Assembly: GCA_963805975.1 (NCBI GenBank)
Contig: CAWDVR010000001.1
Coordinates: forward strand, 640,001 to 704,000
Reading direction: 5' to 3'
DNA from: an uncultured Acidobacteriota bacterium
GTDB lineage: Bacteria > Acidobacteriota > Thermoanaerobaculia > Multivoradales > SZUA-115
DNA length: 64,000 nucleotides
Positions within the stretch are counted from its first letter, which is position 1; each line of letters begins with the position of its first letter. The position numbers and the translations under genes were made by a program. Below, in pieces: positions 13,304 to 36,760 of this stretch. Under the pieces are notes generated by a model. The model was not told the DNA's origin, did not search any database, and saw nothing but the letters and a program-made list of their open reading frames with translations.

Positions 13304-14893
<1,590 letters not shown>

Positions 14894-14899
14894 GCGATA

Positions 14900-15461: not shown

Positions 15462-15799
15462 CCGGAAAGCTCTCCACACACGTCCTGGACCTCACCCGCG
15501 GCGGCCCTGCCGCCGGGATGAGGATCGAGCTGTGGCGGCTGGACACCGCGCCCGTCCTGGTCAAGGCCGTTGCCACCAACGCCGACGGCCGCACCGACGA
15601 GCCCATGCTCGGCCCGGCGGAGATCACAGCCGGCGCTTACGAGCTGGTGTTCTTCGTCCGGGACTACTTCACGGCCCGCGGCATCGACTCGCCGTTCCTC
15701 GACCGCGTTCCCGTGCGCTTCGAGCTGGCGGCGAATGGCACGTACCACGTGCCACTGCTGGTCACACCGTGGGCGTACAGCACGTACCGGGGGAGCTGA
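15458..15799 (+). CDS. uraH: 5-hydroxyisourate hydrolase (transthyretin-like)
   Basis: [21 protein letters not shown]-terminal YRGS signature. Confidence 0.95.
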
Positions 15800-15818
15800 G
15801 GGGCGAGGGCTCCCACTC

Positions 15819-15855
15819 TTGACGCAGGCCCTGGATGCGCATAAGATATGCGCAT
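15819..15855 (+). promoter_or_regulatory. sigma70-type promoter with two palindromes (putative CcdAB operator)
   Basis: TTGACG (15819-15824), 17 bp, TAAGAT (15842-15847); ATGCGCAT palindromes at 15835-15842 and 15848-15855. Confidence 0.7.
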
Positions 15856-15873
15856 TAGCTCGGGAGGCCTCGG

Positions 15874-16119
15874 ATGTTGCCGCTCTACGAACAGCGCGCT
15901 GCCAAGAAACCCACCAACCTCAGCCTCAACAGCGATCTGCTCCGCCAAGCCCGTGACTTGGATATCAACCTCTCTTCGGTTCTGGAAGAGGCGCTGGAAG
16001 TAGTCGTCAGGCGCCGACTCGGCGAGCAATGGCTGGCCGAGAACCAGAAGGCCATCGCTGCCTACAACGAGCACGTCGAAACGCATGGCCTGTGGAGCGA
16101 CGGCCTCCGGACGTTCTGA
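15874..16119 (+). CDS. ccdA: CcdA family antitoxin
   Basis: KKPTNLSLNSDLLRQARDLDINLS, WLAENQKAIAAYNEHVE; GGAGG RBS. Confidence 0.88.
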   Translation: MLPLYEQRAAKKPTNLSLNSDLLRQARDLDINLSSVLEEALEVVVRRRLGEQWLAENQKAIAAYNEHVETHGLWSDGLRTF

Positions 16120-16436
16120 TGCCGCAGTTCACGGTCTACCGCAACAAGAGCGCGCAATCCAGAGGGGGAATTCCTTTTCTGCTCGACGTGCAGAACGACC
16201 TGCTGAGCGACCTCAAGACTCGCGTAGTGATTCCTCTCTACTCGAAGACCTTGCTCGGCACCAAGCCGATCACCAGACTGGTGCCCGAGGTCCAGGTCGA
16301 GGGTAAGAAGCTCGTCCTGATGACGCCTCAACTCGCCGGCGTCGCGGTCAAGGATCTCGGTGAGCCGGTGGCGAGCCTCGTTGAGCGCCGGGCGGACATC
16401 GTCGCTGCGCTGGATCTGCTGATCACGGGGTTTTGA
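16119..16436 (+). CDS. ccdB: CcdB family toxin
   Basis: MPQFTVYRN, FLLDVQNDLLSDLKTRVVIPL, C-terminal ALDLLITGF; TGATG overlap with ccdA. Confidence 0.88.
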   Translation: MPQFTVYRNKSAQSRGGIPFLLDVQNDLLSDLKTRVVIPLYSKTLLGTKPITRLVPEVQVEGKKLVLMTPQLAGVAVKDLGEPVASLVERRADIVAALDLLITGF

Positions 16437-16492
16437 CGCTTCGCTCGCAGCCGCCACCGACCTCGGCTGGGTGCCTGGTAGGCTTCGGGCCC

Positions 16493-17752
16493 ATGTCGCC
16501 GCCACGGGTTCGCGCTAGCTCACTCGCCTCCCGCCTCGACGAGCTGGGCCGGGTCTCCGAGGAGCCCGGCCGGCTGACCCGTACATTCCTCTCGCCGGCC
16601 ATGCGCCGGGTCCACGAGCGGGTCGGTGGCTGGATGGCGGAGGCGGGCCTCGCGGTGCGCGAGGACGCGGTGGGCAACCTGATCGGCCGGCTCGAGTCCC
16701 CGTGGCGCGGTGCCAAGACCCTGCTCCTGGGCTCGCACCTGGACACGGTGCGCGACGCCGGGCGCTTCGACGGCGCGCTCGGCGTGCTGCTGCCGATCGC
16801 CGCCGTGGAGGAGCTTCGCCGCCGCGGCCGGGTGCTGCCGTTCCATGTCGAGGTGCTGGGGTTCTCCGAAGAAGAGGGCGTGCGCTTCGCCAGCGCCTAC
16901 CTCGGGAGCAAGGGCTACACGGGCGCGTTGCGGGCCGCGGACCTGAAGCTCGCGGACGGCGACGGCGTCACCGTGCGCCAGGCGCTCGAAGCGCACGCTT
17001 TGGCGGTTGGAGGGGGCGCTCCCTTCCGCCGCCCCAGGGCCGCGCACCGCTCGCGGGACCTCCTGGGCTACCTCGAGGTCCACATCGAGCAGGGGCCGGT
17101 GCTCGAAGCCGAAGGCCTGGCCGTGGGTGTGGTCTCGGCGATCGCCGGACAGAGCCGCGTGAAGCTCACGTGGACGGGCAAGGCCGGCCATGCCGGCACC
17201 ACGCCGATGCACCTGCGCCGTGACGCCCTGGCCGGCGCCGCGGAGCTGGTGCTGGCGGCCGAGGAGCTGGCGCGAGGATCCGCTCCGCTGGTGGCCACCG
17301 TCGGCGCGCTGTCGGTGGCACCCGGCGCCGGCAACGTCATCCCCGGCGAGGTAACCCACACTCTCGACGTGCGCCATCCGCAGGATCGCGCCCATGCCGC
17401 CGCGCTCGCATGCCTGCATCGCACGGCGGAGCGGATCGCCCGCCGCCGCAGGCTCGGTCTCGACTGGCTCCTCACCCAGGACCACGGCGCAGTGGCCTGC
17501 TCGAAGGCGCTCGCCGCGCTGCTCGACGAGAGCGTGCGCCAGGTACAGGGCAAGAGCCTCACGCTCGCGAGCGGCGCCGGCCACGACGCGGTGATCCTCT
17601 CGCGGCTCGCGCCGGTCGCCATGCTCTTCGTGCGCTGCCGCGACGGGCTCTCGCACCACCCGGACGAGCACGCCTCGCCCGCGGACCTCGCGACGGCGCT
17701 CGCGGTCACGGTGGACTTCCTGGAGCGCCTGGCGGCCCGGGTCGAGGCATGA
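16493..17752 (+). CDS. allC: Allantoate amidohydrolase (M20 family)
   Basis: GSHLDTV, GRFDGALGV, EEEGVRF, EVHIEQGPVLE, GHAGTTPM, SGAGHDA; purine cluster context. Confidence 0.85.
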   Translation: MSPPRVRASSLASRLDELGRVSEEPGRLTRTFLSPAMRRVHERVGGWMAEAGLAVREDAVGNLIGRLESPWRGAKTLLLGSHLDTVRDAGRFDGALGVLLPIAAVEELRRRGRVLPFHVEVLGFSEEEGVRFASAYLGSKGYTGALRAADLKLADGDGVTVRQALEAHALAVGGGAPFRRPRAAHRSRDLLGYLEVHIEQGPVLEAEGLAVGVVSAIAGQSRVKLTWTGKAGHAGTTPMHLRRDALAGAAELVLAAEELARGSAPLVATVGALSVAPGAGNVIPGEVTHTLDVRHPQDRAHAAALACLHRTAERIARRRRLGLDWLLTQDHGAVACSKALAALLDESVRQVQGKSLTLASGAGHDAVILSRLAPVAMLFVRCRDGLSHHPDEHASPADLATALAVTVDFLERLAARVEA

Positions 17753-19119
17753 GCAGCCGGCTCGACCTGGTGATCCGCGGCGGCGAGGTGGTGACGCCGG
17801 AGGGTGTGGCCCGCGCCGATCTCGGCATTACAGAGGGCCGCATCGTGGTGGTGTCGCCGGAGATCGTCGAGCGAGCCTCCGAGGTGCTCGACGCCCGCGG
17901 TCTCTACGTCTTTCCCGGCATTCTCGACGCCCACGTCCACTTCAACGAGCCGGGACGCACGGACTGGGAGGGGCTGGCGAGCGGCTCGGCCGCGCTCGCC
18001 GCCGGCGGCGGTACGTGCTTTTTCGACATGCCGCTGAACTCGCTGCCGCCGGTGCTCGACGCCGCGAGCTTCGCTCTCAAGCGCACCGCGGCGGAGCGTG
18101 CCTCGCGCCTCGACTTCGGCCTCTGGGGCGGCCTGGTGCCGGGCAACCTCGACCACCTGGGCGAGCTGGCCGAGGCGGGCGCCGTGGGCTTCAAGGCGTT
18201 CCTCTGCGCGAGCGGGGTCGAGGAGTTCGAGGCGGTCACCGAGACCGCGGTCCTGGGGGAGGGAATGAGGCGCGCCGCCGCCCTGGGCTTGCCCGTGGCC
18301 GTCCATGCCGAGGACGACGCCTTGGTGAGCTCGCTCACCGACGCCGCGCGCCGGCGTGGGGCGACCGACGTGCGGTCCTGGCTCTCGACCCGGCCGGTGG
18401 CGGCGGAGGTGGAGGCGATTCGCCTCGCCTGCGAGCTGGCCGGCGAGACCGGCTGCGCCCTGCACGTGGTGCACGTGAGCAGCCCCGAGGGTGTTCTCGA
18501 GATCGCCGAGGCGAAGCGCCGTGGGGTCGACGTGAGCGCCGAGACCTGCCCGCACTACCTGCTGCTCACCGAAGACGAGGTGGTCCGCCTGGGCGCAGCG
18601 GCGAAATGCGCACCGCCGCTGCGCAGCGAAGCGCGGCGCCAGGCCCTCTGGGACGCGCTCCTCGCGGACAGCCTCGACACGCTCGGCTCGGACCACTCGC
18701 CCGCGCCGCCGTCGATGAAGACCGCGCTAGACTTCTTCGCCGTCTGGGGAGGCATCTCGGGCTGTCAGCACGGGTTCCCGCTCCTGCTGAGCGAGGCGCT
18801 CGCGAGGCATCCGGCGCCCGTGATCCTGCCGAGGCTCGCCGAGCTTCTGGCTGCGAACGTGGCACGGCGCTTCCGGGTCGGTCGCCGTAAGGGCCGTCTG
18901 GCCGAGGGCTTCGACGCGGACCTCGCGCTGCTCCAAGTAGGGGAGGAGCACACGCTGGCCAACTCCGACCTCCTCTACCGCCATCGGCAAGGGCCGTACG
19001 AAGGCCGCCGCTGCCGGGTCCGCGTGGTGCGCACCCTGGCGCGGGGCCGCACGGTGTTCGCGGCCGGCGAAACGTCATCCAACCCACCGGCCGGGGCTTT
19101 CCTCCGGCCGGAGACCTGA
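17749..19119 (+). CDS. allB: Allantoinase
   Basis: DAHVHFNEPGRTDWEG, DMPLNSLPP, VHAE, ETCPHYL, KCAPPLR, SDHSP, WGGISG. Confidence 0.92.
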   Translation: MSSRLDLVIRGGEVVTPEGVARADLGITEGRIVVVSPEIVERASEVLDARGLYVFPGILDAHVHFNEPGRTDWEGLASGSAALAAGGGTCFFDMPLNSLPPVLDAASFALKRTAAERASRLDFGLWGGLVPGNLDHLGELAEAGAVGFKAFLCASGVEEFEAVTETAVLGEGMRRAAALGLPVAVHAEDDALVSSLTDAARRRGATDVRSWLSTRPVAAEVEAIRLACELAGETGCALHVVHVSSPEGVLEIAEAKRRGVDVSAETCPHYLLLTEDEVVRLGAAAKCAPPLRSEARRQALWDALLADSLDTLGSDHSPAPPSMKTALDFFAVWGGISGCQHGFPLLLSEALARHPAPVILPRLAELLAANVARRFRVGRRKGRLAEGFDADLALLQVGEEHTLANSDLLYRHRQGPYEGRRCRVRVVRTLARGRTVFAAGETSSNPPAGAFLRPET

Positions 19120-19128
19120 GGCCTCTAC

Positions 19129-19872
19129 ATGATCGAGCTATTCGGTCACACCCGCGCGCGCATCGCCGGCCGGCATGCGCTCATCACCCCGCACAACCAC
19201 GTCAACAGCGTGCTGCCCGGCGTCACCGGCGCCGCCTCGGTGGTGCTCATCAACCAGGCCATGGGCGCGGGCTTCGCGCAGACCTCGCTGACCTTCCAGG
19301 AGGGCGGCGCAGCCACTCTCCCGGCCGGCGAGCTCGAAACCTTCGGCTACGTGATGAGCGGCGGCGCGTCGGTTGCCGCGGGCGATCTCGGCGGCCGGCT
19401 CGCGGCCGGCGGGTATTTCTTCGCACCGCCGGGCTCGGGGTGGAGCTTGCGCGAGCCGGAGGAAGGCACGCGGTTGATGCTTTTCGAGAAGCGCTACGTG
19501 CCGCTGGCCGGTGCCCTGCCTCCGGGTGCCGTGATCAGCCGTGCGGACGCGGTGGAAGGCGCACCCTTCCTCGGCGACCCCGCCGCCGACCTCAAGGTCC
19601 TGCTGCCGGACCAGCCTTCCTACGACATGGCCGTGAACCTCTTCTCCTACCAGCCCGGCGGGCACCTGCCCTTCGTCGAGGTCCACGTCATGGAGCACGG
19701 GCTCGTCATGCTCGAAGGCACCGGCGTCTACCGGCTGGAGGACTCCTGGTACCCGGTGCAGGCGGGTGACGTGATCTGGATGGCGCCCTACTGCGCGCAG
19801 TGGTTCGTTGCCATGGGCAAGACACCCGCGAAGTACCTGTACTACAAGGACGTGAACCGGGCGGCGATCTAG
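19129..19872 (+). CDS. allE: (S)-ureidoglycine aminohydrolase (bicupin)
   Basis: PFVEVHVMEHGL, GDVIWMAPYCAQWF, YLYYKDVNR. Confidence 0.9.
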   Translation: MIELFGHTRARIAGRHALITPHNHVNSVLPGVTGAASVVLINQAMGAGFAQTSLTFQEGGAATLPAGELETFGYVMSGGASVAAGDLGGRLAAGGYFFAPPGSGWSLREPEEGTRLMLFEKRYVPLAGALPPGAVISRADAVEGAPFLGDPAADLKVLLPDQPSYDMAVNLFSYQPGGHLPFVEVHVMEHGLVMLEGTGVYRLEDSWYPVQAGDVIWMAPYCAQWFVAMGKTPAKYLYYKDVNRAAI

Positions 19873-19891
19873 GCCTGATAATCTGGCGGCC

Positions 19892-22800
19892 ATGGCTTTT
19901 TCCTTCCATCTCAACGGCCGGCGGATCGAGGTGGATGGGCCGGCGCCTACCACCACGCTGGCGGATTTCCTGCGTTCCGAAGGCCTCACCGGCACCAAGA
20001 TCGGCTGCGCTGAAGGGGACTGCGGCGCTTGCACGGTGGCGCTCCTGGAGAACGACGCGGCCGGCCGGCCTACGTACCGCGCGATCAACAGTTGCATCGC
20101 GCTCCTGCCCATGGTCGCCGGCCGCGAGGTGGTGACGGTCGAGGGCCTGGCGGACGGCGAGCGGCTGCACCCGGTGCAGGCGGCGATGGTCGAGCAGTAC
20201 GGGTCGCAGTGCGGCTACTGCACTCCCGGCTTCGTGGTCTCGCTTTTCGAGGCCTTCTATCGCGAGGGCTGCCGCACCTCCCGCGACCTTTCCGACCAGC
20301 TCTGCGGCAACCTCTGCCGCTGCACCGGCTATCGGCCGATCCGCGACGCGGCGCTCGACGCGCTGGCAAAGCGGGACGAGCCGGCGAACGGCGAAGACCC
20401 GTTCCGCGCCCGCCTCGAAGCCGCAGTTCCGGTCCTCGACTCACTCGCCTACGAGGCGGCGGGAGAGCGGTTCTTCCGCCCTACCTCGCTCGCCGAGCTC
20501 TTCGCGCTCTGGTCCGCCCACCGGGAGGCACGCCTGGTGGCCGGTGCCACGGAGATCGGCGTCGATCTCAACAAGAAGTTCCAGGCGTTTCCGCTCCTGA
20601 TCTCGACCGAGGGCGTTCCGGAGCTGACGCGGATCACCTCGACCCCGGCCGCCTGGCGGATCGGCGGCGCGGCCACGCTCACCGCGGTCGAGGAGGCCTT
20701 GGCGGGAGAGTATCCGTCGTTCGCCAAGATGCTCCGCGTCTTCGCCTCGCGGCAGATCCGCAGCCGCGCGACGCTCGGCGGCAACCTCGCCACGGCCTCG
20801 CCGATCGGCGACACCGCGCCCGTGCTGATGACGCTCGACGCCGAGCTGGTGCTCGCCTCGGCCGCGGGCGAGCGCACGGTGCCGATCGCGGACTTCTTCA
20901 CCGCGTACCGCAAGACCGTGCTCGGGCCGGGAGAGCTGATCCGCGAGATCGTCGTGCCCCGTTTCCCCGCCGTGGGCCCGGGCGCGACGCGCCGGGTCGA
21001 CTTCCTCAAGGTCTCGAAGCGCCGAGAGCTCGACATCTCGATCGTGGCCGGCGCCTTCGCCCTGGACCTCGACGCCGCCGGCGTGGTGTGCCAGGCGCGG
21101 CTGGCCTACGGCGGGGTGGCCGCGACGCCGCTCCGTGCGCGGAGGGCGGAGGCGGCGCTCGAAGGCCGTACGCTTGCCGCCGCGGCGGAAGAGGTCGAGC
21201 GCATCCTCGCCGCGGACCTTCATCCCATCGACGACGTGCGCGGCGGTGCCGCCTACCGGCGTGGCCTGGTGGTCAGCCTGTGGCGAAAGTTCGTGACCGG
21301 GGAGGCGAGCGAGGCCCAGGATGGTGCGCTCGACTTCGAGCACGGGGAGCGCTGGCCGGGCTCCGACGCCTCGCGTGCCCTCCGCCACGAGAGTGGCGTG
21401 GGCCACGTCACGGGCCGCGCGCTCTACGCGGACGATCTCGCGCAGCGCCGGCCCATGCTCGACGTGTGGCCCGTGGTCTCGCCGCACGCGCGGGCGAGGG
21501 TCCTGCGCCGCGACGCCAGCCGGGCAGCGGCCGCGCCCGGCGTGGTCGCGGTGCTGCTGGCCGAGGACATCCCCGGCGAGAACAACGTCGGCGTGGCGCG
21601 CCACGACGAGCCGCTGCTGGCGGTGGACGAGGTCTCCTACCACGGCCAGCTCGTGGCGCTGGTGGTGGGGGAGTCGCAGCGCGCCTGCCGTGCCGCCGCG
21701 GCGCTGGTGGAGGTGGAGTACGAGCCGCTGCCGCCGGTGCTGACCCTCGCCGAAGCGATGGCGCAGGGGAGCTACCACACCGAGCCGCACGTGTTGGCGC
21801 GTGGCGACGTAGCCGCGGCGCTGGCCGCCGCGCCCTGCCGGCTGGACGGTAGCTTCGAGATGGGCGGCCAGGAGCACTTCTACCTCGAGACCCACGCCGC
21901 CTGGGCCGAGCCGGGCGAGAACGGCACGGTGCTGGTCTGCTCCTCGACGCAGCACCCCTCCGAGATCCAGGCCATGGTGGCCGAGGTGCTGGGCCTGCCG
22001 CGCAACAAAGTGGTGACCCGCGTGCCGCGCATGGGCGGCGGCTTCGGCGGCAAGGAGACGCAGGGCAACATGTTTGCGGCGCTCACCGCGCTGGCGGCCA
22101 CCAAGACCGGCCGGCCGGTGCGCGTGCAGCTCGACCGCGACCTCGACCTCGCCATCACCGGCAAGCGGCACCCGTTCCACGCCAGTTTCTCCGTGGGTCA
22201 CGACCGCGACGGCCGGCTGCTCGCGGCCGGGGTCGAGCTGGTGTCGAACGGCGGCTGGTCGCTCGACCTCTCGCAGGCCATCCTCGACCGCGCGCTCTTC
22301 CACCTCGACAACGCCTACTACCTGCCGGCGGTCCGCTTCTCGGGGCGCGTGGCGAAGACCAACCTCGCCTCCAACACCGCCTTCCGCGGCTTCGGCGGGC
22401 CCCAGGGCATGCTGGTGATGGAAGAGATCCTCGACCGCGTGGCGCGCCGGCTGGGTCTCGCACCCGAGGTGGTGCGCGAGCGGAACCTCTACCGTGGCTC
22501 GGGCGAGACCAACACCACGCACTACAACATGGAGATCGGCGACCAGCGGCTGCTGGAGGTCTGGCGGCGGGTGTTGGAGGAGTCGAGCTTCGCCGAGCGA
22601 AGGCTCGCGGTCGCGGCCTGGAACCGCGAGCACCGGACCGTCAAGCGCGGCCTCGCCGTGACGCCGGTCAAGTTCGGCATCTCCTTCACCCTCACGCACT
22701 ACAACCAGGCGGGCGCGCTCGTCCTGCTCTACCAGGACGGCAGCGCGCAGGTGAACCACGGCGGCACCGAGATGGGGCAGGGCCTGCACACCAAGGTGCT

Positions 22801-23704
22801 CGGCATCGCCATGCGGGAGCTGGGCCTCCCGGCCGAGCGCATCCGGCTGATGACCACTTCGACGGACAAGGTGCCCAACACCTCCGCCACCGCGGCCTCG
22901 GCCGGCGCGGACTTGAACGGCGCGGCCGTCGCCGCGGCGTGCAAGACGCTCCGCGAGCGGCTGGCGCCGGTGGCGGCCCGGCTGCTGGCCCAGCAGACGG
23001 GCATTGCCGTCGAGCCGGATGAGCTGGTGTTCGCGGACGGGGGCGTCCAAGCGGGCGAGGCACGGCTTTCCTTCGCGGCCGTCTGCAAGCAGGCGTACGT
23101 GGAGCGCGTCAGCCTCGCCGCCACCGGCTACTACGCGACGCCGGGGATCTCCTGGGACTGGTCCACGGCCACGGGCCGGCCCTTCTACTACTTCGTCTCC
23201 GCCGCCGCCGTGGCCGAGGTGGAGGTGGACGGCTCCACGGGCATGCACCGCGTGCTGCGAGTCGACATCGTGGAGGACGCGGGCGACTCGCTCAACCCCG
23301 GTGTCGATCGCGGGCAGATCGAAGGCGGCTTCGTGCAGGGCATGGGCTGGCTGACGCGGGAGGAGCTGCTGTGGGACGGCGAGGGCCGCCTCCTCACCCA
23401 CAGCGCCAGCACCTACGCCATCCCGGCGGTCAGCGACGCGCCGCTCGAGATGCACGTCACGCTGCTGACCAACGCACCGCAGGAGGGCGTGATCCACGGC
23501 AGCAAGGCGGTGGGCGAGCCGCCGCTGATGCTCGCCTTCTCGGTGCGCGAGGCGATCCGCGACGCCATCGCCGCCTTCGGCGAGACGGGCGGCGAGATCA
23601 CCCTACCTTCGCCGGCCACCTGCGAGGCGATCTTCCACGCGGTCCGGGCGCGGGAGGGGAGCCGAATCGAAGAAGCGCAAGCGGTGGAGGTGGTGGGGGC
23701 GTAG
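19892..23704 (+). CDS. xdh: Xanthine dehydrogenase, single-chain 2Fe-2S/FAD/molybdopterin fusion (XdhA+XdhB)
   Basis: GCAEGDCGAC, QCGYC, NLCRC, ATLGGNLATASPIGD, RMGGGFGGKE, AFRGFGGPQG, SKAVGEPP in one 1270-aa ORF. Confidence 0.93.
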   Translation: MAFSFHLNGRRIEVDGPAPTTTLADFLRSEGLTGTKIGCAEGDCGACTVALLENDAAGRPTYRAINSCIALLPMVAGREVVTVEGLADGERLHPVQAAMVEQYGSQCGYCTPGFVVSLFEAFYREGCRTSRDLSDQLCGNLCRCTGYRPIRDAALDALAKRDEPANGEDPFRARLEAAVPVLDSLAYEAAGERFFRPTSLAELFALWSAHREARLVAGATEIGVDLNKKFQAFPLLISTEGVPELTRITSTPAAWRIGGAATLTAVEEALAGEYPSFAKMLRVFASRQIRSRATLGGNLATASPIGDTAPVLMTLDAELVLASAAGERTVPIADFFTAYRKTVLGPGELIREIVVPRFPAVGPGATRRVDFLKVSKRRELDISIVAGAFALDLDAAGVVCQARLAYGGVAATPLRARRAEAALEGRTLAAAAEEVERILAADLHPIDDVRGGAAYRRGLVVSLWRKFVTGEASEAQDGALDFEHGERWPGSDASRALRHESGVGHVTGRALYADDLAQRRPMLDVWPVVSPHARARVLRRDASRAAAAPGVVAVLLAEDIPGENNVGVARHDEPLLAVDEVSYHGQLVALVVGESQRACRAAAALVEVEYEPLPPVLTLAEAMAQGSYHTEPHVLARGDVAAALAAAPCRLDGSFEMGGQEHFYLETHAAWAEPGENGTVLVCSSTQHPSEIQAMVAEVLGLPRNKVVTRVPRMGGGFGGKETQGNMFAALTALAATKTGRPVRVQLDRDLDLAITGKRHPFHASFSVGHDRDGRLLAAGVELVSNGGWSLDLSQAILDRALFHLDNAYYLPAVRFSGRVAKTNLASNTAFRGFGGPQGMLVMEEILDRVARRLGLAPEVVRERNLYRGSGETNTTHYNMEIGDQRLLEVWRRVLEESSFAERRLAVAAWNREHRTVKRGLAVTPVKFGISFTLTHYNQAGALVLLYQDGSAQVNHGGTEMGQGLHTKVLGIAMRELGLPAERIRLMTTSTDKVPNTSATAASAGADLNGAAVAAACKTLRERLAPVAARLLAQQTGIAVEPDELVFADGGVQAGEARLSFAAVCKQAYVERVSLAATGYYATPGISWDWSTATGRPFYYFVSAAAVAEVEVDGSTGMHRVLRVDIVEDAGDSLNPGVDRGQIEGGFVQGMGWLTREELLWDGEGRLLTHSASTYAIPAVSDAPLEMHVTLLTNAPQEGVIHGSKAVGEPPLMLAFSVREAIRDAIAAFGETGGEITLPSPATCEAIFHAVRAREGSRIEEAQAVEVVGA

Positions 23705-23791: not shown

Positions 23792-23998
23792 ATGAGCTTC
23801 ACGATCGAGATCGAGCGCGAGGAGGACGGCCGCTGGCTGGCGGAGGTGCCCGCCCTGCCAGGCGTGCTTTGTTACGCCGCTACGCGTGAAGAAGGGATCG
23901 CTCGGGCGCAAGCTCTCGCTTTGCGGGTGATCGCCGAACGGCTCGAACACGGCGAGGTGCCCGCCGAGCTTCTTCAGGTGTCCTTCCAAGCAGCGTGA
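23792..23998 (+). CDS. hicB: HicB family antitoxin (short form)
   Basis: IEIEREEDGRWLAEVPALPGVLCYAATREE. Confidence 0.85.
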   Translation: MSFTIEIEREEDGRWLAEVPALPGVLCYAATREEGIARAQALALRVIAERLEHGEVPAELLQVSFQAA

Positions 23999-24207
23999 GC
24001 CACTTCTCGGCGACCCGGGCGAGGCGCGTCCTGGCTGCGCTTCTGCGTCTCGGTTGGGTGGTCAAGCGTCAGAGCGGCTCGCACCGCACCCTCGCGAGGC
24101 CGGGATGGCCCGACTTTGTCTTCGCCTTCCACGAGAACGAGGAGATCGGACCTCGAATGCTGTCGAGGATCGCTCGCCACACCGGCCTGCGACCTACGGA
24201 TCTCTGA
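23995..24207 (+). CDS. hicA: HicA family mRNA interferase toxin
   Basis: LGWVVKRQSGSHRTL, FAFHENEEIGP; GTGA overlap. Confidence 0.85.
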   Translation: MSHFSATRARRVLAALLRLGWVVKRQSGSHRTLARPGWPDFVFAFHENEEIGPRMLSRIARHTGLRPTDL

Positions 24208-24266
24208 TCCAGGGCCAGCGGGTTTCTCGAAGGACAAGTTGCGCTAACGGGTAGGGGGTGCCGCCT

Positions 24267-24301
24267 AAACCAACGAGGGCGGCCGGACCGGGCCGCCCTC
24301 G
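24267..24301 (-). terminator. Putative intrinsic terminator of the four-gene array
   Basis: 11-bp stem cgagggcggcc / ggccgccctcg, followed on the minus strand by TTGGTTT; 25 bp downstream of the copy 4 stop. Confidence 0.55.
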
Positions 24302-24326
24302 CCGTTGTCCACTCACACCTGAATCT

Positions 24327-25147
24327 CTACGGGCAGTCGTAGGGGTAGCACACCTCGCCGCCGCTGCAGTGCTGTTTGCTCTCGCCCTCGTACTCGTGGC
24401 AGGTCATCGGCCCGCAGGGGAGCAGAGGCCGGGTTCCCACTGGTAGCCCGCAGGGTCCCAGCCTGCCGCGAAGTTGGAGGTCCCGGCGAGGTGGGTGTCG
24501 GGGATGCCGTCGCCGTTGGTATCGGCGAAGGTGGGCCCGACGACCTTGCCGCCCGGGCCGGGCGTAAAGGACCAGGGCAGCGACTGCGCGGGGAAGGTGA
24601 AGCTGCCCGCGAGCTCGAGCGGGCGCGCCGCGCGGCCGGAGACCGGCACGAAGGTCAGGCGCACATCGACCGCCAGCGGGGCGACGAAGGTGCCGCCGCG
24701 CTCGTGGCTGCGGTAGATGTGCATCGTGGTCACACGCTGGGTGCCGGCGAGGCTGACGTGGACGTGGAAAGCGCCGCACGGCGTCTCGAGCGGGGCGGAG
24801 CTGACCATCGACAGGGCCTGGAACTGGACGCGCGTCACGGCACGGCCGCTCTCGTCGAAGGCGGCGTCGTCGAGGCGGGCGATCACCGTGTCGGTGCCGC
24901 GAAGCTGGCCGGGGACCGCGGTCTCGATCGGCAGGCCCTTGAAGGTGACGCGGCCGGTGAAGGCCGGCGAGCTCCGGCAGAAGAAGCCGGCGGGGATGGG
25001 GTCGTCGGCGAAGTCGTAGAACGTCTTGCCGTTGTCGAGGGTGACGAACACGTCGCTGCCGCGCTCGATCACCGGTGCGGCGTTTGCGGGGAAGGCACTG
25101 ATCGCGATGGTAACGGCGAGCGCGATCAGAAGTGCGGTCCTCTTCAT
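24327..25147 (-). CDS. Secreted paralog copy 4 (conserved core + six-Cys tail), apparent 1-bp deletion at 24417-24420
   Basis: Signal peptide, shared core; adding one G to the GGGG run gives the tail GLCSPCGPMTCHEYEGESKQHCSGGEVCYPYDCP*. Confidence 0.8.
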
Positions 25148-25175
25148 TTCGATCTCCTTGAGTTCCGGTGCGGTC

Positions 25176-25997
25176 TTAGGGACAGAGGACGTTCTCGCAG
25201 CCGGGTGGGGTGTACGGGAAGGAGCAGTGCATCTTGCCCGATCCGTCGTCGTGGCAGGTCACGCCCTGGCACGGGTTGCAGTCGTACCACTGGTAGACGG
25301 CAGGGTCCCAGCCCGCCGCGAAGTTGGAGGTCCCGGCGAGGTGGGTGTCGGGGACGCGGTCGCCGTTGGTGTCGGCGAAGGTAGGGCCGATGCCCTTGGC
25401 GTCCGAGGAGGGCGGGAAGGACCAAGGCAGCGCCTCCGCCGGGAAGGTGAAGCTGCCGTTGAGCTCGAGCGGACGCGCGGCGCGGCCGGAGACCGGTACG
25501 AAGCGCAGGCGAACGTCCACCGCCAGCGGAGCGACGAAGGTGCCGCCGCGCTCTTCGGTGCGGTAGATGCTCATAGAGGTCACGCGCTGGGTGCCGGCGA
25601 GGCTGACGTGGACATGGAAAGCGCCGCAGGTTGTCTCGAGCGGCTTGGAGCTGACCAGGGACAGGGCCTGGAACTGGACCCGGGTCACGGCGCGGCCGGT
25701 TTCGTCGAAGGTGGCGTCGTCGAGGCGGGCGACCACGGTGTCGGCGCCGTGGAGCTGCCCGGGGACGGCGGTCTCGAGCGGCAGGCCCTTGAAGGTGACG
25801 CGGCCGGTGAAGGCCGGGGAGCCCTGGCAGAAGAAGCCGGCCGGGATGGGGTCGTCGGCGAAGTCGTAGAACGTCCTGCCGTTGTCATGGGTGGTGAACA
25901 CGTCGCTTCCGCGCTCGATGACCGGCGCCGCGTTCGCGGGCAGGGTGCCGAGCGCGATTGCGAGGGCCAGTACCGTCAACAGTGCGATTCTTCTCAT
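25176..25997 (-). CDS. Secreted paralog copy 3 (conserved core + six-Cys tail)
   Basis: AAGGAG RBS; MRRIALLTVLALAIALGTLPANA signal; tail YDCNPCQGVTCHDDGSGKMHCSFPYTPPGCENVLCP. Confidence 0.88.
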   Translation of the reverse strand: MRRIALLTVLALAIALGTLPANAAPVIERGSDVFTTHDNGRTFYDFADDPIPAGFFCQGSPAFTGRVTFKGLPLETAVPGQLHGADTVVARLDDATFDETGRAVTRVQFQALSLVSSKPLETTCGAFHVHVSLAGTQRVTSMSIYRTEERGGTFVAPLAVDVRLRFVPVSGRAARPLELNGSFTFPAEALPWSFPPSSDAKGIGPTFADTNGDRVPDTHLAGTSNFAAGWDPAVYQWYDCNPCQGVTCHDDGSGKMHCSFPYTPPGCENVLCP

Positions 25998-26025
25998 GGC
26001 GATCTCCTTGGTTACAGGTGCGTTC

Positions 26026-26841
26026 CTAGGGACAGACAATCTCTTGGCAGTGGGGCGGAGTGGGCGGCAAGGAGCAGTGCCACTTGCCCGTTCCGTCGTC
26101 GTGGCAGGTTTCCTGGCACTGGTTGCATTCGCCCCACCAGTTGACCTCGCTCGGGCGCCAGCCCGCCGCGAAGTTGGAGGTCCCGGCGAGGTGGGTGTCG
26201 GGGATACGGTCGCCATTGGTGTCGGCGAAGGCGGGGCCGGGGCCCTTGGCGCCAGATCCGGGAACGAAGGCCCAGGGCAGCGCCTGCGCGCCGAAGGTGA
26301 AGCTGCCGGTGAGCTCGAGCGGGCGTGAGGCGCGGCCGGAGACGGGCACGAAGCGCAGGCGCACGTCGACCGCCAGCGGGGCGACGAAGGTGCCGCCGCG
26401 CTCCTCGCTGCGGTAGATATTCATGGTGGTCACGCGCTGGGTGCCGGCCAGGCTGACGTGGACGTGGAAAGCGCCGCACGGCGTCCTGAGGGGGCTGGAG
26501 CTGACCAGGGACAACGCCTGGAACTGGACGCGAGTCACGGCACGGCCGCTCTCGTCGAAGGTGGCGTCGTCGAGGCGCGCGACCACGGTGTCGGCGCCGT
26601 GGAGCTGGCCGGGGGTCGCAGTCTCGAGCGGCAGGCCCTTGAAGATGACGCGGCCGGTGAAGGCCGGGGAGCCCTGGCAGAAAAAGCCGGCCGGGATGGG
26701 GTCGTCGGCGAAGTCGTAGAACGTCCTGCCGTTGTCATGGGTGGTGAACACATCGCTTCCGCGCTCGATCACCGGCGCCGCGCCCACGGGGAGGGCGGTG
26801 ATCGCGAGCGCCAGCACTACCAGCAGAACCGTTCTCCTCAT
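26026..26841 (-). CDS. Secreted paralog copy 2 (conserved core + six-Cys tail)
   Basis: AAGGAG RBS; signal peptide; tail GECNQCQETCHDDGTGKWHCSLPPTPPHCQEIVCP. Confidence 0.88.
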   Translation of the reverse strand: MRRTVLLVVLALAITALPVGAAPVIERGSDVFTTHDNGRTFYDFADDPIPAGFFCQGSPAFTGRVIFKGLPLETATPGQLHGADTVVARLDDATFDESGRAVTRVQFQALSLVSSSPLRTPCGAFHVHVSLAGTQRVTTMNIYRSEERGGTFVAPLAVDVRLRFVPVSGRASRPLELTGSFTFGAQALPWAFVPGSGAKGPGPAFADTNGDRIPDTHLAGTSNFAAGWRPSEVNWWGECNQCQETCHDDGTGKWHCSLPPTPPHCQEIVCP

Positions 26842-26865
26842 GGCAGTCTCCTTTCCTGGAAGTGA

Positions 26866-26895
26866 CGCCGGGAGCTGGAACGCGGGCTCCCGGCG
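26866..26895. other. Intergenic stem-loop between copies 1 and 2
   Basis: 10-bp perfect arms cgccgggagc / gctcccggcg with no U-tract; possible mRNA stability or attenuation element. Confidence 0.45.
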
Positions 26896-26924
26896 CGAAG
26901 ATCAGTCACCGCCATCCCGCTGCA

Positions 26925-27740
26925 TCACGGGCACACGGCGGGCTGGCAGACGACCAACGGGCCGGAGCAGTGCTCCTTGCCTCCGTCCATGTGGCATTGC
27001 CGCGGCTCGCAGGTGAAGCAGCCGGTTTCCACCTGGTAACCGTTGGGGTCCCAGCCCGCCGCGAAATTGGAGGTGCCGGCGAGGCGCGTGTCGGGAATGC
27101 GGTCGCCGTTGGTGTCGGCCAGCGAGGGCCCGACCACCTTGCCGCCCGGGCCGGGCGCGAAGGACCACGGCAGGGACTGTGCGGGGAAGGTGAAGCTGCC
27201 GCTGAGCTCGAGCGGGCGCGAGGCGCGGCCGGCGACCGGCACGAAGCGCAGGCGCACGTCGACCGCCAGCGGGGCGACGAAGGTGCCGCCGCGCTCGTGG
27301 CTGCGGTAGATGCTCATCGTGGTCACGCGCTGGGTGCCGGCGAGGCTGACGTGCACGTGGAAGGCGCCGCAGGGCGTCTGGAGGGGGCTGGAGCTGACCA
27401 GTGACAGGGCCTGGAACTGGACCCGCGTCACGGCACGGCCGCTCTCGTCGAAGGTGGCGTCGTCGAGGCGGGCGATCACCGTGTCGGCGCCGCGGAGCTG
27501 GCCGGGGACCGCAGTCTCGAGCGGCAGGCCCTTGAAGGTGACGCGGCCGGTGAAAGCCGGCGAGTTTCTACAGAAGAAGCCGGCCGGGATGGGGTCGTCG
27601 GCGAAGTCGTAGAACGAGGTTCCGTTGTCGACAGTGGTGAACACGTCGCTGCCGCGCTCGATCACCGGCGCGGCGGTCAGGGGAGCAGATCCGAGCACCA
27701 ACGCGACGGCGAGCACTACCCAAAGGCTTCGGTTCCTCAC
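26925..27740 (-). CDS. Secreted paralog copy 1 (conserved core + six-Cys tail)
   Basis: AAAGGAGG RBS, GTG start; signal peptide; tail TGCFTCEPRQCHMDGGKEHCSGPLVVCQPAVCP. Confidence 0.88.
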   Translation of the reverse strand: MRNRSLWVVLAVALVLGSAPLTAAPVIERGSDVFTTVDNGTSFYDFADDPIPAGFFCRNSPAFTGRVTFKGLPLETAVPGQLRGADTVIARLDDATFDESGRAVTRVQFQALSLVSSSPLQTPCGAFHVHVSLAGTQRVTTMSIYRSHERGGTFVAPLAVDVRLRFVPVAGRASRPLELSGSFTFPAQSLPWSFAPGPGGKVVGPSLADTNGDRIPDTRLAGTSNFAAGWDPNGYQVETGCFTCEPRQCHMDGGKEHCSGPLVVCQPAVCP

Positions 27741-27893: not shown

Positions 27894-28349
27894 TTAGTAG
27901 TCGAAGCGCGCGGCGATGTAGCCGCTGTAATGCCAGTTCTCTGCGTAGCAGGTGGGGGAGCCGACGTAGATCTTGAAGTAGTTGCCCACACCGGCCGCCT
28001 GGGAGAGGCCGTAGGCCTTGCCCACGCAGGAGGCGCAGCGCAGCGAGCCGTTGCGGTACACGTCCCAAAGGCCGATGATCTCGTCGTTGTCGCTCGAGCC
28101 CACGGAGATCAGGCGGAACTCGTACTGCGTGGCGCCCACGAAGCCGATGGCGTTCGAGAACGCCTGGAGCGTTTTCTCCTGCCAGCTCGAAACGGAGTTG
28201 CCGCTGGTCGGGCTGTACCAGGCGCCGGTGTCGCCGTCGGCGATGGCGATCGGCTTGTCCGACCACACGCTGTGGACCGGCTGGGCGGCGAGCGGAGCGG
28301 CGGCGAGCAAGGCGATCAGGACGAAGGCGAGGCGGAGCGAAGCGCGCAT
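27894..28349 (-). CDS. Small secreted hypothetical protein
   Basis: MRASLRLAFVLIALLAAAPLAA signal peptide; aromatic-rich beta-type body with CASC and a third Cys. Confidence 0.7.
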   Translation of the reverse strand: MRASLRLAFVLIALLAAAPLAAQPVHSVWSDKPIAIADGDTGAWYSPTSGNSVSSWQEKTLQAFSNAIGFVGATQYEFRLISVGSSDNDEIIGLWDVYRNGSLRCASCVGKAYGLSQAAGVGNYFKIYVGSPTCYAENWHYSGYIAARFDY

Positions 28350-28590
28350 GAAGGGGTCTCCTTCTCTCCGAGCAAAGGTGGGGAGGGGAATGCCTCCGCC
28401 ATGATTCGGAGCTTCTGTTGTCTCTGTGCATTTCTGCACTGAAGTGTAGACAATTATAAGTCCGAAATGCTCGCTCTGGTTCGTCGCACCTCTCGCCTAA
28501 TACCCGGCTTCGACCTCTTCGTCTCTACCACTGACCAAGCCACGCTATGAGCCGATCCCGGCTCGAGCGACCGTTCAGAGGAGAGGTCCC

Positions 28591-30255
28591 ATGCGATCCG
28601 CAGTCCAGAGCTGGCAGTGCTTTGCCGTGATCTTCGCCCTGCTCGCCGCGCCGAGCAGTGCCGCCACCATCAGTGACGAAGCCGGGCGCCTGATCGACCG
28701 CGCCGGGTTCACCGAGCTCCTGGATCTCGAGCTCCACCTCACGCCCGCGGCGGAGGTCGAGACCCTGGGCCAGGAAGTGACGGCCAGCTTCGCGGTCGGT
28801 GAGCGAGGTGAGAGGTCTTACACTCTGAACGGCGAGCGGGTCGGAGAGGCGGAGCTCGCGGCCCACTCCGAGCGTACCAAGCGGGAGTTGCTGGCCAGGG
28901 CGGAGGCACGCGCGCGCCGCGACCAGTCGCGGTTCGAGGCGGCGATCCGGCGAGCCGGGCTCGAGGGCAAGGTCTCGGCCACTGTCGGGCGGGTGCTGCG
29001 AGTGCGGCTCAACCGCGACGAGGCCCGCCGTGCGATCGAGGCGCTCGGCGGCGAGCTGTCCCTGGTCGACCTGCCGCAGGTCCCGCGACTGACGCTCACC
29101 CAGGCGACCACGACCAACACCCAGGGCGCCTTCGAGGCGACCGGCATCGTGCCCTACGCGCACAGCTACGGTTTGAAGGGCTCAGGAGTCGGCGTGTGGC
29201 TCGAGGAGGGCAACTCGCCGGACTCGAGCGACCCGGCGATCAACACCGCCAACCTGCGCTACCTGACCAGCGACCCGGTGCTGGGAGACCACGCGACGCT
29301 CACCACCGTCACGCTCCAGAAGGCGGCCCCGCAAGCGGTGGTCTACTACGGCCACCAGCCGGCCGGCTGTCACCTCTTGTCGAGCATCCTTACCCAAACC
29401 AACCCGCCGATCTACCTCGGTTCGCACTCCTGGAACTGGGGGGACGTGGCCTCGGCCACCTACACCAACTGCTGCGCGGAGTGGGACGACTTCGTCTACG
29501 AGAACCGGCTGCCCATGTTCGTGCCCTCGGGCGGTAGCGCGCCGGACGTCTACACCACCAGCCCCGGCAAAGCGTTCAACGTGGTGGCGGTGGGCGGCGC
29601 GGACACCGATGCCGGCATCATCGACGGCTACTCCGGCTACCTCAACCCCGAGACCGGCGCCATCAAGCCGGACGTCGTCACCCCGGGCACCTGCCTGGCG
29701 ATCAAGCCGGGCCACGACTGCGTAAGCGGCGTCTCGATCGCCACGCCGATCGCCGCCGGCTTCGCGGCCGACATGATCGGCGGCTCCGCCTTCTTCCGCA
29801 ACCAGCCGCAGGTGGTGAAGGCATACCTGGTGGCCGGCGCCACCACCGACATCGAGCCCGGCATCGCCATGGACGGGCCCGGCATGGCCAACTTCCTCCA
29901 CACCTGGTTCTACCGCTGGGGCAAGTGGTGGAACGGCAGCAATGCCTCGTACTTCAACTCCAACCAGGAGATCATCGAGACCACCAACCTAACGGCCGGT
30001 AAGCGCTACCGGGTCGCGATCTCCTGGCTGGTGCCGGGCTCCTACGCGCTGGCCAACAAGAAGCCGAACATGGAGATGTCGCTGACCGTCACCCGCGGCA
30101 CGTCGACCTTCACCAGCAACTACTCGCGGAGCATCTTCCAGTGGGTGGACTTCGTGGCCCCCACCTCTGGCAGCTACACCATCAAGATCAAGCGTACGTT
30201 CAACGCCGGGGTGGGCGACCTGGCCCTGGCGCTGACCGTGGGGGAGGTGGTGTAG
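28591..30255 (+). CDS. Secreted S8 (subtilisin-like) serine peptidase with atypical motifs and a C-terminal PPC-like domain
   Basis: Signal peptide and prodomain; GSGVGVWLEEG, DHATLTT, SPGKAFNVVAVGG, IKPDVVTPG, SGVSIATPIAAG. Confidence 0.7.
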   Translation: MRSAVQSWQCFAVIFALLAAPSSAATISDEAGRLIDRAGFTELLDLELHLTPAAEVETLGQEVTASFAVGERGERSYTLNGERVGEAELAAHSERTKRELLARAEARARRDQSRFEAAIRRAGLEGKVSATVGRVLRVRLNRDEARRAIEALGGELSLVDLPQVPRLTLTQATTTNTQGAFEATGIVPYAHSYGLKGSGVGVWLEEGNSPDSSDPAINTANLRYLTSDPVLGDHATLTTVTLQKAAPQAVVYYGHQPAGCHLLSSILTQTNPPIYLGSHSWNWGDVASATYTNCCAEWDDFVYENRLPMFVPSGGSAPDVYTTSPGKAFNVVAVGGADTDAGIIDGYSGYLNPETGAIKPDVVTPGTCLAIKPGHDCVSGVSIATPIAAGFAADMIGGSAFFRNQPQVVKAYLVAGATTDIEPGIAMDGPGMANFLHTWFYRWGKWWNGSNASYFNSNQEIIETTNLTAGKRYRVAISWLVPGSYALANKKPNMEMSLTVTRGTSTFTSNYSRSIFQWVDFVAPTSGSYTIKIKRTFNAGVGDLALALTVGEVV

Positions 30256-30884: not shown

Positions 30885-32381
<1,497 letters not shown>

Positions 32382-33699: not shown

Positions 33700-36600
33700 C
33701 TAGAGCGGCTCCGAGTTCGGCGTCGGCGTGGCCTGGACCTGCCAGGCGCCGGCGAGGGTGGTGCGCTCGATCGAGGAGCCGCCGGAAGCGTCGCTCACGT
33801 CGGGTGAGTTGGCGCCGCCGGTCTCGTCGATCAGGTTGCTCGAGTTGCTGGTGCCGTAGATCACCGCATCGACCGGCACGGTGGTCGAGGTGAAGAAGGC
33901 GGCGCGCATGTTGAAGAGCGCCACTCCATCGGCCACCGCTCCGCTGTTCTGGAGGTCCGGGTCGAAATCGTAGGACTGGCCGTAGCTCGGGTTGCCGTTG
34001 GCCGAGCTCGAGGTCGGGCCGCCGACCACGAACGTGGCGCCGGAGGCGATCGAGCCGGAGAGCTGCACCCTGCCGCCGTCGGTGTAGTCGTCACCGGCCA
34101 TTCCGAGGCTCATGCTCGACAGATCGACCGTGGCGCCCGAGGCGTTGTAGAGCTCGATCCACTCGACGCCGCCGTCCGCGCCCGTGGGGTCGTACAGCAC
34201 CTCGGAGAGCAGGATCGCGCCCTTCGGAACGGTGAAGGCCGTGCCGTTGACCCGCTTGCCGGGGGAGTAGCGCGTCCCGCCCGAGCCGGAGGCCAGCGTG
34301 TGCTTGACGAGCGGGGTGTGGGTCGAGTCCGGGCTGCGGGTCAGCGACTGGTCGTTGTTGGCGGCCGAGTTGTAGGTCACGGCGTGCACCACCGTGCCGC
34401 CGCCGGTCTTGAGCGTGATGGTGTCGCCGGCGTTGTTGAGCGCCAGGGTGCCGGTGCTGGCGATGAACACCAGGCCGTTGGCCGCCGCGTTGCCGAAGGC
34501 GCCGGTGGGCGTGCCGGCGCCGAACACCACCACCGCCTCGCGCGGCGGCACCACCGTGCTCGCGGCGAAGGTGTGCCGCACTCCCACGAGGTCGGAGATG
34601 GTGTAGCCCGAGATGTCCATGGGCACGTAGCCGGTGTTGACGATCTCGAGGAACTCGTCGTCCTCCACGTCGAGCGCGCTGTCGCCGTTGGCGTCGCCCA
34701 GCGTGGCGTGCGGATCGGCGTGGATCTCGTGGATGAGGAGCGCCGGGTGGTTCACCTCGTCGCTCACGAAGTCGGCCTTGGCGCGGGGCGTCAACTGGTA
34801 GCCGGAGCTGAACGGCGCCCAGGAATCGAACTGCGTCACCAGCGCGATGAGGTCGAAGGTCTGGGTGGGGGAGTCGGCGCCGGGAATGTCCGTGTCCTCG
34901 TCGATCCGCACCGTGACCTGGGTGGCGCCGCCGTTGTCCGTGACCAGCAGATTGCCGCCCCCGCCCTCGGGGATCGTGCCCGAGACCACCGTCAGCCCGT
35001 TGACCCGCACCAGCTTGCCCTCGCGGGCCTCTCCGACCTGCGAGAGGGTGATGACCTCGGGCGACGGCGCGCTGCCGGAGGAGATGAGGGTGTGACCGAA
35101 GTTTCCCCAGTCCTCGGCCGTGTTGAGCTCGGTCTGGCCGGAGAACTGCTCGAGCTCGCCCACGAACTGCACCAGGTCGCCGCGCGCGAGCGTCAGCAGG
35201 TCGCCGTCGAAGATCTGGATGCCGCCCGTCGCGTCCTGCACGAAGGCCTGGGTGACGAAGGTGTGGAAGAGGCCGGGCTCGGCCGTGAGGTTGCCCTCGA
35301 CCCGCGCGCCGTAGCGCTTGGGCACCAGCACGCCGTCGCCGTCGTTCACCTTGAGATCGGCGATGTCCGTCACCCCGGAGTAGTAGCCGTGGGCCGGCGA
35401 CAACGTCACTTGCGTGGCCGAGTCCGTGGCCTCGACGCGGAAGCGCACCTGCGTGCCGTCCGCCTGCGCGGGGATGGTCGCCGAGTAGGTGCCGGAGGAG
35501 AGGCTCATGGTGAGCGCCGTCTGCTCGACGCCGTCCAGCCAGTAGCGCAGGCGGACCGTTACCGCGCCCGCGTCCGCGACGCGGGCCTCGACCTCGACTG
35601 CTTCGCTGTCCTCCGGCACCAGCGGGTCGCGGCCCACTTCGAGGATGGCCGGCGGGAAGTCGCCCGGCGTGCCGGCGCCCGCATCGGCGGGGAAGGCCTG
35701 GCGGCCGAAGCCGCAGGCCGAGAGCTCATAGGAGTCGCCGTCCGAGATCAGCAGCATGGTGCCGGGCTTGCCGAAGGCGCCGTCCACGTCGTCGCAGTCC
35801 GCGATGCCGGCGGCGAGCGTGTCGTCCGAGCGCGCGTCGCCGGGCTTGCTGGCGTTCTGCTGGAAGAAGAGCGGCTCGTTGCCGTCCGTGTCCAGCGTGT
35901 CGAGGAAGCGCTCCACCACCACGGCGCGGGGATGGCCGAAGTCGTTCCCCGCCGAGTTCTGGTTGATCGCGATCTCGGCCTTGAGGCCGGCGAGGAACGT
36001 AGCGTTCGAGCTGGTGTGGCTGCCGTGGTGGTTCACGGTGTAGACGTCCACGTCGCCCACGAACGGCACGACCTCGCTCTCGACATCGGTCACGTCCTCG
36101 GCCGGGTTGCCGGTCAGGTCGCCGCCGATCCACACCTGCACCTCGCCGTACTCGACCACTACCGCGACCGACGCCGAGTTCTCGAACTGCGCCGAGCCCG
36201 AGATGTCCACGTCGCTCGAGTCCGGCAGGTCGCCGTTGACCACGTAGCAGCGCACCGTCACGCCGCCGCCGAGGTCGATCGAGGTCGTCGCCGTGATCGT
36301 GGTGCGGTCGTGGAAGCTCGCGCCGTAGGCGTAGTCCGAATAAGCGAAGCTCCCCGGCGTACCGCCCGTGGTGCCACGGTCGTAGGTGATGGCGCCCCCG
36401 GCCAGCGGCACGAGCTGGAAGACGTGGTCCAGCCGACCGATGTGGTCCTCGTCGTAGTGAGTGGCCACCACGTAGTCGACGCTCGCGGCCACGCCGGCGT
36501 CGATCAGGTCGTTGATGAAGTCCTCGACCACGTCGTCGGCCAGCTTGAGCTCGGTGCCGGCGTCTACCAGCAGCGCCTTGCCGGTGGGCGACACCACCAG

Positions 36601-36729: not shown

Positions 36730-36744
36730 AGTCGTCACCTCGTG

Positions 36745-36760
36745 TAGTGAAAGTTCACTA
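36745..36760. promoter_or_regulatory. Perfect inverted repeat, putative repressor operator
   Basis: TAGTGAA-AG-TTCACTA, AT-rich in a ~70% GC context, immediately upstream of the RBS of the 36729 gene. Confidence 0.55.

Follow-up and report, generated by a model that had tools for sequence, protein, structure and literature searches.

A tandem array of putatively secreted proteins in a Thermoanaerobaculia bacterium, with variable cysteine-rich tails predicted to close a beta-barrel

The gene array

We analysed a 64,000-nucleotide stretch (the window, to which all positions refer) of contig CAWDVR010000001.1 from an uncultured acidobacterium of the class Thermoanaerobaculia (assembly GCA_963805975.1), in which an earlier reading of the letters alone (the original prediction) had described four genes for secreted proteins of 271-273 amino acids, each joining a near-identical core to a hypervariable tail. 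All four copies lie co-oriented on the minus strand. Three are intact: g1 (26925..27740; 271 amino acids, GTG start), g2 (P0001; 26026..26841; 271 amino acids) and g3 (P0002; 25176..25997; 273 amino acids). The fourth, g4 (24327..25147), spans 821 nucleotides, which is not a multiple of three, and is frameshifted in its tail; the spacers between copies measure 83, 28 and 28 nucleotides. A ribosome-binding site of the GGAG/GGAGG type precedes each of g1-g3, and their N-termini run from basic to hydrophobic and stop before APVIERG, so that the ribosome site and Sec signal ascribed to every gene hold for these three, with the signal peptides judged by eye. The proposed tail scaffold of six cysteines and two histidines is likewise present in g1-g3.

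As assembled, g4 reads as a 247-amino-acid open reading frame (24404-25147) that keeps one tail cysteine and lacks the histidine hairpin described below, the remaining scaffold lying in another frame. The break falls at a run of four C with one base missing (24417..24420). Because no same-strain contig spans these positions in four read runs, which hold 5-20% of the sequence words, and because frameshift-like breaks occur at 2 of 133 other places of the source assembly (a proxy count), the break is compatible both with an assembly error and with a true mutation that makes g4 a pseudogene.

We use residue numbers of g2, the copy that was modelled, throughout. Its signal peptide covers residues 1-21 (26779..26841, by eye), its core residues 22-228 (26158..26778) and its tail residues 229-271 (26026..26157), the last consisting of a linker, a hairpin and a variable, cysteine-bonded cap. 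The cores share 176-187 of 207 residues (85-90%) and thus fall short of the near-identity first described, while the tails of g1-g3 share 18-24 of 43 (42-56%); the signal peptides are as variable as the tails (7-14 of 23 residues, 30-61%). Since paralogs within the array match at E-values below 1e-120, and since 750 of 2,445 candidates in a search with g2 proved homologous, these comparisons exclude chance as the source of the likeness within the array and the family.

A scan for promoters and terminators returned no promoter-like and one terminator-like site, no more than in shuffled sequence. Strong GC hairpins without a T run stand in the g1-g2 spacer (26842-26924) and after g4 (24208-24326), and may stabilise or end the transcript.

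Family size and distribution

The array belongs to a large family. A search of the full library at E ≤ 0.001 gathered 1,798 clusters at 50% identity. An organism name was attached to 7 of 120 matches listed in the g2 search, all of them Thermoanaerobaculia or Acidobacteriota, and in a scan of species genomes, from which we took the best 80 of 280 confirmed stretches and kept 78 loci, all 78 carried one of the same two titles. At 12 of these 78 loci a second copy lies within 6 kb (one spurious match was dropped). Among 41 related genomes, 13 contain the family, with up to 21 matches per genome, and one contig carries a seven-copy tandem array with CHC..C..HC tails (L099, G020:C53:668-7530). When a broader profile was applied across the phylum and 8 candidates were scored in each genome, at least 7 of 301 genomes matched. 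On these counts the family is expanded in Thermoanaerobaculia.

The domain also occurs within larger proteins. Long proteins among the best 150 clusters contain as many as six copies of it, accompanied by TSP3, dockerin, galactose-binding and IPTL-CTERM parts; a dedicated search of longer proteins recovered 1 of 7,996 candidates, which the full-library search showed to be an undercount of fusions.

That no known family could be recognised has stood up. Searches of Pfam, NCBIfam and PDB sequences returned no match over the domain for the window proteins (for Pfam, nor for 51 diverse members), a sequence search of solved structures with g2 and a 51-row profile gave nothing below E 0.03, and no description of the family was found in the literature searched, with subscription papers and supplements outside that search.

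The source genome itself holds two distant paralogs at about 40% identity (G000:C3:712808-713788 and C2:728985-729950), with longer tails that have at least eight cysteines and enclose a long loop within the CH..HC pair. It also holds a broken remnant (L152, G000:C1:1143667-1143828) that keeps only the end of the core and breaks at the core/tail junction, with a Cys/His tail in another frame.

Predicted fold and place of the tail

An AlphaFold2 model of g2, built from an alignment of 119 rows, is all-beta, with a predicted local distance difference test (pLDDT) of 86.4 and a predicted template modelling score of 0.79. We compared it with 48,161 solved chains, taking the 50 best rows, and did the same for a control model of P0201, a relative whose tail has the histidine and no cysteine. 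The top rows for g2 are eight-stranded barrels, led by DynF (Z 9.1, root-mean-square deviation 3.7, 148 aligned residues, 13% identity, model residues 23-263); the outer-membrane barrels NspA, OmpA and PagL follow at Z 8.6, 8.3 and 8.2, and range from 8.2 to 8.9 over both models. For P0201 (pLDDT 88.2) DynF again leads, at Z 9.6 (deviation 3.2, 147 aligned). The core would supply strands 1 to 7a, and the tail hairpin (residues 246-258, 26068..26106) strands 7b and 8.

In g2 the tail forms two predicted strands, 245-248 and 253-258, at a pLDDT of about 70, and in P0201 strands 246-250 and 254-260, the second within a block at pLDDT 85. Because 44 of 50 rows for g2 align to residue 258 or further (47 of 50 align through 258 for P0201), and whole eight-stranded barrels cover residues 22-260, the tail is predicted in both models to provide the closing strand of the barrel.

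Foldseek found no match at E ≤ 0.001 for either model; the copper proteins FtrA/P19 appeared among its weak rows (E about 0.4) and were not used. A complex prediction of core (22-230), tail (231-271) and zinc gave 0.71, 0.01 and 0.01 in its runs, with controls that were not folded, and is used neither way.

Conserved residues and coevolution

Conservation was measured in 206 domains under 62% identity, drawn from 521 extracted. The core residues D30 (96%), T34 (95%), D84 (93%), T85 (94%), R89 (99%) and G150 (100%) are nearly constant, and Q135 is kept in 80%. In the tail, H255 is kept in 86% of the domains (177 of 190 filled rows) and H247 in 64%. The hairpin cysteines are far less constant: C246 occurs in 38%, C256 in 36% and both in 72 of 206 domains, and H255 is present without C256 in 104. 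Among 55 domains from large multidomain proteins, 40 have H255 and three have the cysteine pair. The strands each show a single hydrophobic face, on which D30, T34, R89 and H255 also lie.

Coevolution was computed from the 521 sequences (effective number 326, a shallow alignment). The C246-C256 pair ranks third (z 11.1) and C55-C122 reaches z 5.8; both are likely disulfides, as predicted from these couplings. Links between the last strand and the core are F181-K253 (z 5.2), Y42-K253 (4.3) and T34-H255 (3.8), and hydrophobic pairs couple across the barrel (L112-L156, z 5.0; F107-V158, 4.3). From these data we infer that the barrel is soluble, that its interior is hydrophobic with His, Asp and Arg at a polar end, and that a hairpin stapled by a disulfide closes it. 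Near the end of the core, a DxNGDxxxD loop (residues 207-215, 26197..26223), which we take to be calcium-binding, gives FG-GAP_3 matches below cut-off.

Variation and inheritance of the tails

We surveyed 323 distinct tails, mostly of close homologs. All except one contain a histidine (322/323), and 289 carry the CH..HC pair; wholesale replacement of the C-terminus by unrelated sequence, the trait of polymorphic toxins, is thus not what these tails display. Tail identity increases with core identity. A quick tree was made from 79 core rows (9 chosen and 70 random, excluding 30 unclassified tails). It requires 6 changes among four tail types, compared with 33.9 after shuffling, and by this measure the tails are therefore inherited types that mostly follow the core tree rather than freely swapped cassettes.

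The array itself departs from this. The tail of g1 is of type A (CxxCEP...HCSG), as is the tail at the syntenic, single-copy locus of G001, a genome of the same genus. The tails of g2, g3 and P0003, by contrast, belong to type D, in which a Pro-rich stretch follows HC (they score 39-43 bits with the D profile and 10-21 with A; the g4 tail was not scored). The cores of the same three proteins nevertheless group with g1 (support 99), inside type-A lineages. Conservation of tails between orthologs, which the original prediction had named as evidence against its reading, is seen in part: g1 and its syntenic ortholog share 73% of the tail and 79% of the core, and types track the core tree, whereas g1 and g2/g3 share 42-49% of the tail and 86-88% of the core. 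Type-D tails on g1-like cores suggest recombination, and convergence is a possible alternative origin of the mismatch.

Pooled substitution rates were obtained for 11 hand-picked tandem pairs and 14 between-genome pairs. In tandem pairs the nonsynonymous rate (dN) is 0.32 in tails and 0.05 in cores, about sixfold, a difference that alignment error in the tail can inflate; the faster diversification of the tail that had been anticipated is thus observed. The ratio of dN to the synonymous rate (dS) is 0.24 for the core and 0.71 for the tail in tandem pairs (1.01 without the shared Cys/His), and 0.29 and 0.47 between genomes (0.65 without them). Tail dS exceeds core dS in 10 of 11 tandem and 12 of 14 between-genome pairs. 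Positive selection on the tail was considered and set aside, no dN/dS being clearly above 1; the pattern agrees with selection on the cap that is relaxed or mixed, together with recombination among cores. In one read run, X1, a tail is bridged by two contigs whose flanks match and whose tail segment does not, consistent with variation among close relatives.

Relation to known families

DynF (PDB 6ubl), of the family DUF6073 (PF19550), is an eight-stranded up-down barrel with interrupted strands, and is the top structural match of both models. A language-model search placed DUF6073 clusters nearest, at 0.80 for g2 and, among named clusters, at 0.90 for P0201. The two leads name the same family, because a DUF6073 protein of the source genome matches 6ubl at E 2.6e-15. 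Sequence profiles do not extend this link to the array: the PF19550 hidden Markov model matched neither the window proteins nor 51 diverse members, its matches in the source genome are two other genes, and hhalign of the family profile against a single DUF6073 protein returned a probability of 1.5% over 31 columns. The array family also differs in its PIPAGFF segment, acidic DxNGD loop, long variable linker, histidine hairpin and cysteine cap, and is not located in a biosynthetic cluster. By profile, then, it is not DUF6073; its fold, on the models, is probably related.

The source genome carries two tandem near-identical DUF6073 genes and one DUF6004 gene (L154, G000:C1:990809-992308; L156, C1:819270-820232), with likely signal peptides; genes of these two families were absent from 200 other genomes of the phylum that were searched. 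A literature search on DUF6073, DUF6004, PF19550 and PF19467 found no paper. TnmF, a DynF ortholog, reportedly has an enzymatic role, which a search of the literature did not recover and on which we do not rely. A structural account describes DynF as a dimeric eight-stranded barrel that holds palmitate inside, with its role unconfirmed, and its ortholog Sgd15 as essential for biosynthesis of the enediyne sungeidine (PMC8725005).

Other soluble eight-stranded barrels that bind small molecules resemble the models less closely. BcnB of the YceI group scores Z 5.7-6.4 and zebavidin 6.4, and lipocalin, YceI and avidin barrels as a whole lie at Z 3.9-6.4, the background range; no Pfam match to these families was found in the window proteins or diverse members. 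Multigene expansion of binders is familiar from lipocalins, and we know of no histidine pair with a disulfide cap in the YceI, avidin or lipocalin families.

A constant N-terminal part, a faster-changing cysteine-rich C-terminus and tandem paralogs are shared with the precursors of conotoxins, defensins and ribosomally synthesised and post-translationally modified peptides, and with polymorphic toxins. Conotoxin-type precursors keep a conserved signal or leader ahead of a variable mature peptide. The array family, by contrast, has a variable signal peptide, tails that lie within the predicted fold, and homologous tails that track the core tree.

Proposed function and alternatives

Most probably the tail is built into the barrel as a hairpin, carries a variable, disulfide-bonded cap above a pocket of Asp, Arg and His, and is neither a cargo nor a heme c site. 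The full reading, which we rate at slightly better than even, is that each protein is a barrel binder whose Cys/His tail gives the last two strands and whose His247 and His255, with Asp30, Thr34 and Arg89, line a pocket for a small ligand, assisted by a metal. Its parts differ in strength. With high confidence, resting on the models, we take the tail to be integral to the barrel; a ligand pocket is rather probable; and a metal at the histidine site is proposed tentatively, its chances falling a little short of even. This comes closest to one option of the original prediction, a metal-binding Cys/His tip, yet what stays constant is the histidine together with core Asp and Arg, and the cysteines look like disulfides.

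In the proposed mechanism the protein would be exported and then oxidised to form its disulfides. The barrel would take up a small ligand whose polar end, or else a metal, is likely held by His247/His255 and Asp30; access or specificity may be tuned by the variable linker and cap. The local array arose through tandem duplication of one gene, and its cores appear to have been homogenised or exchanged by recombination while caps diverged, yielding a repertoire of binders.

Several observations weigh against this interpretation. DynF lies within 1 Z unit of the outer-membrane barrels and is effectively tied with them, and Z 7-8 is common for unrelated models; therefore the fold alone does not give ancestry. 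The six-cysteine tail is modelled at a pLDDT of only 58-71. H247 is absent in about a third of the domains, so a two-histidine metal site is not universal. Several high-ranking tail-tail couplings resemble phylogenetic noise, and the inward direction of the side chains is deduced from strand alternation and weak couplings. Finally, a binder of this kind leaves unexplained a lysine that precedes the first tail cysteine in 197 of 231 tails of that kind, against about 39% expected.

An enzyme on the same barrel is an unlikely alternative. His255, Asp30 and Arg89, with or without a metal, would carry out acid-base or redox chemistry on a small hydrophobic substrate selected by the cap. Near-invariant polar residues on the inner face would suit this, as would the requirement for Sgd15 in enediyne biosynthesis (PMC8725005) and the barrel enzymes among the lower fold rows (Cyc15, Z 5.4; dirigent, 4.5; allene oxide cyclase, 4.2). 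Those rows are at background Z, however, and no pathway genes recur beside the family. We favour a binding module over an enzyme because as many as six repeats occur in one chain, next to TSP3, dockerin and IPTL-CTERM parts; tandem repeats in large surface proteins would be more typical of binding modules.

We judge it distinctly improbable that the core is a pro-protein or carrier, another option raised originally, from which an extracellular protease cuts after the linker lysine to free a three-disulfide peptide, the array being a peptide library. The widespread lysine and the roughly sixfold faster tails agree with it, and a secreted S8 subtilase gene (28591-30255, plus strand; Pfam E 1.7e-8) lies 850 nucleotides upstream. 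Yet release would take away a predicted barrel strand, the histidine strand being expected to close the barrel. Relatives without the cysteine cap retain that strand, and the histidine persists without the cysteine pair and in the repeats of large proteins. The lysine is missing from g1-g3 and their four closest listed relatives, and the peptidase, transcribed away from the array, is absent from the syntenic locus of G001 and from the recurring neighbours. Signal peptides are also not conserved, unlike those of conotoxin precursors. Only the linker lysine still leaves room for a cleavage step.

A heme protein, with covalent attachment at Cx3CH/Cx4CH or non-covalent heme b on His255 as in heme-carrying barrels, seems very unlikely to us. 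The spacing recalls cytochrome c3-type motifs, with Cx4CH in 237 and Cx3CH in 11 of the 323 tails, and a conserved last-strand histidine with a buried arginine could suit heme b by analogy with nitrobindin and nitrophorin. Unlike cytochrome c3, however, the family has a single motif, dispensable cysteines and an all-beta fold. Only 8 of 323 tails contain CxxCH, those of g1-g3 not among them. An earlier cysteine is lacking in 17 of 289 hairpin tails, and the 248 of 323 mostly close tails that have Cx3-4CH are not representative of the wider family, given the frequencies of C246 and H255 above. The CH cysteine couples with the HC cysteine, as for a disulfide, and two histidines on adjacent strands could hardly both be axial ligands. 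The heme c option of the original prediction accordingly lacks support.

Outer-membrane barrels carry a C-terminal aromatic signal on their last strand. That the family is such a barrel, with the His/Asp site facing lipid as in PagL, is barely credible despite the structural tie with NspA, OmpA and PagL: g1-g3 end in Cys-Pro with no aromatic residue (in g2, 13 residues past the last strand), hydrophobic couplings between non-adjacent strands favour an inside position for these residues (at z 4-5 only), and long secreted proteins contain the domain as tandem repeats.

Returning to the barrel binder, a bolder version would see in soil Thermoanaerobaculia an antibody-like repertoire of secreted binders on a new DynF-related barrel, in which a constant, recombination-homogenised scaffold with a His/Asp metal site inside displays exchangeable caps, locked by disulfides, whose specificity is for metals, metallophores, antibiotics or signals, and in which a cut at the linker lysine may open the cap in most members. 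We consider this conceivable and on the unlikely side.

The work defines a large, presumably extracellular domain family lacking a Pfam or NCBIfam model, with up to about twenty-fold expansion in a soil lineage that is abundant and for the most part uncultured. With this family the DynF barrel, represented by a single solved structure in the searches made, would extend to secreted proteins. If caps set ligand specificity, the family would offer a small binding scaffold of natural origin and hint at which substances these bacteria scavenge or neutralise. A variable cysteine-rich C-terminus need not mean a peptide toxin.

Genomic neighbourhood

Neighbouring genes were clustered across 79 regions (633 genes), and the top 45 clusters were read by eye. 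No neighbour family occurs in more than 12 of the 79 regions, and the commonest cluster resembles, by eye, a xanthine-dehydrogenase-type operon. In line with the lack of modifying enzyme or immunity gene noted earlier, no tailoring enzyme, transporter, dedicated protease or immunity gene recurs beside the family in this set; no immunity gene lies directly downstream of the copies, which abut one another with no recurring downstream gene.

In the window, the array sits between a gene for a 181-amino-acid protein and a hicAB-like pair. The former (27894-28439, minus strand) is co-oriented upstream of g1 and syntenic in G001; its product carries a likely signal peptide and is matched by neither Pfam nor NCBIfam. 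The hicB-like/hicA toxin-antitoxin pair (23792-24207, plus strand) directly follows g4 and, like the S8 gene, is absent from the G001 locus with its single family copy.

Further away, 33700-36825 (minus strand) encodes a 1041-amino-acid secreted metallo-beta-lactamase-fold protein with lamin-tail domains. The stretches 12923-23704 and 30885-32381 (both plus strand), with open reading frames read by eye, form what we take to be a purine-use region, presumably encoding malate synthase, OHCU decarboxylase, HIU hydrolase, allantoate amidohydrolase, allantoinase, a fused xanthine dehydrogenase and an NCS1-type permease, and including a presumed ccdAB-like pair (15874-16436).

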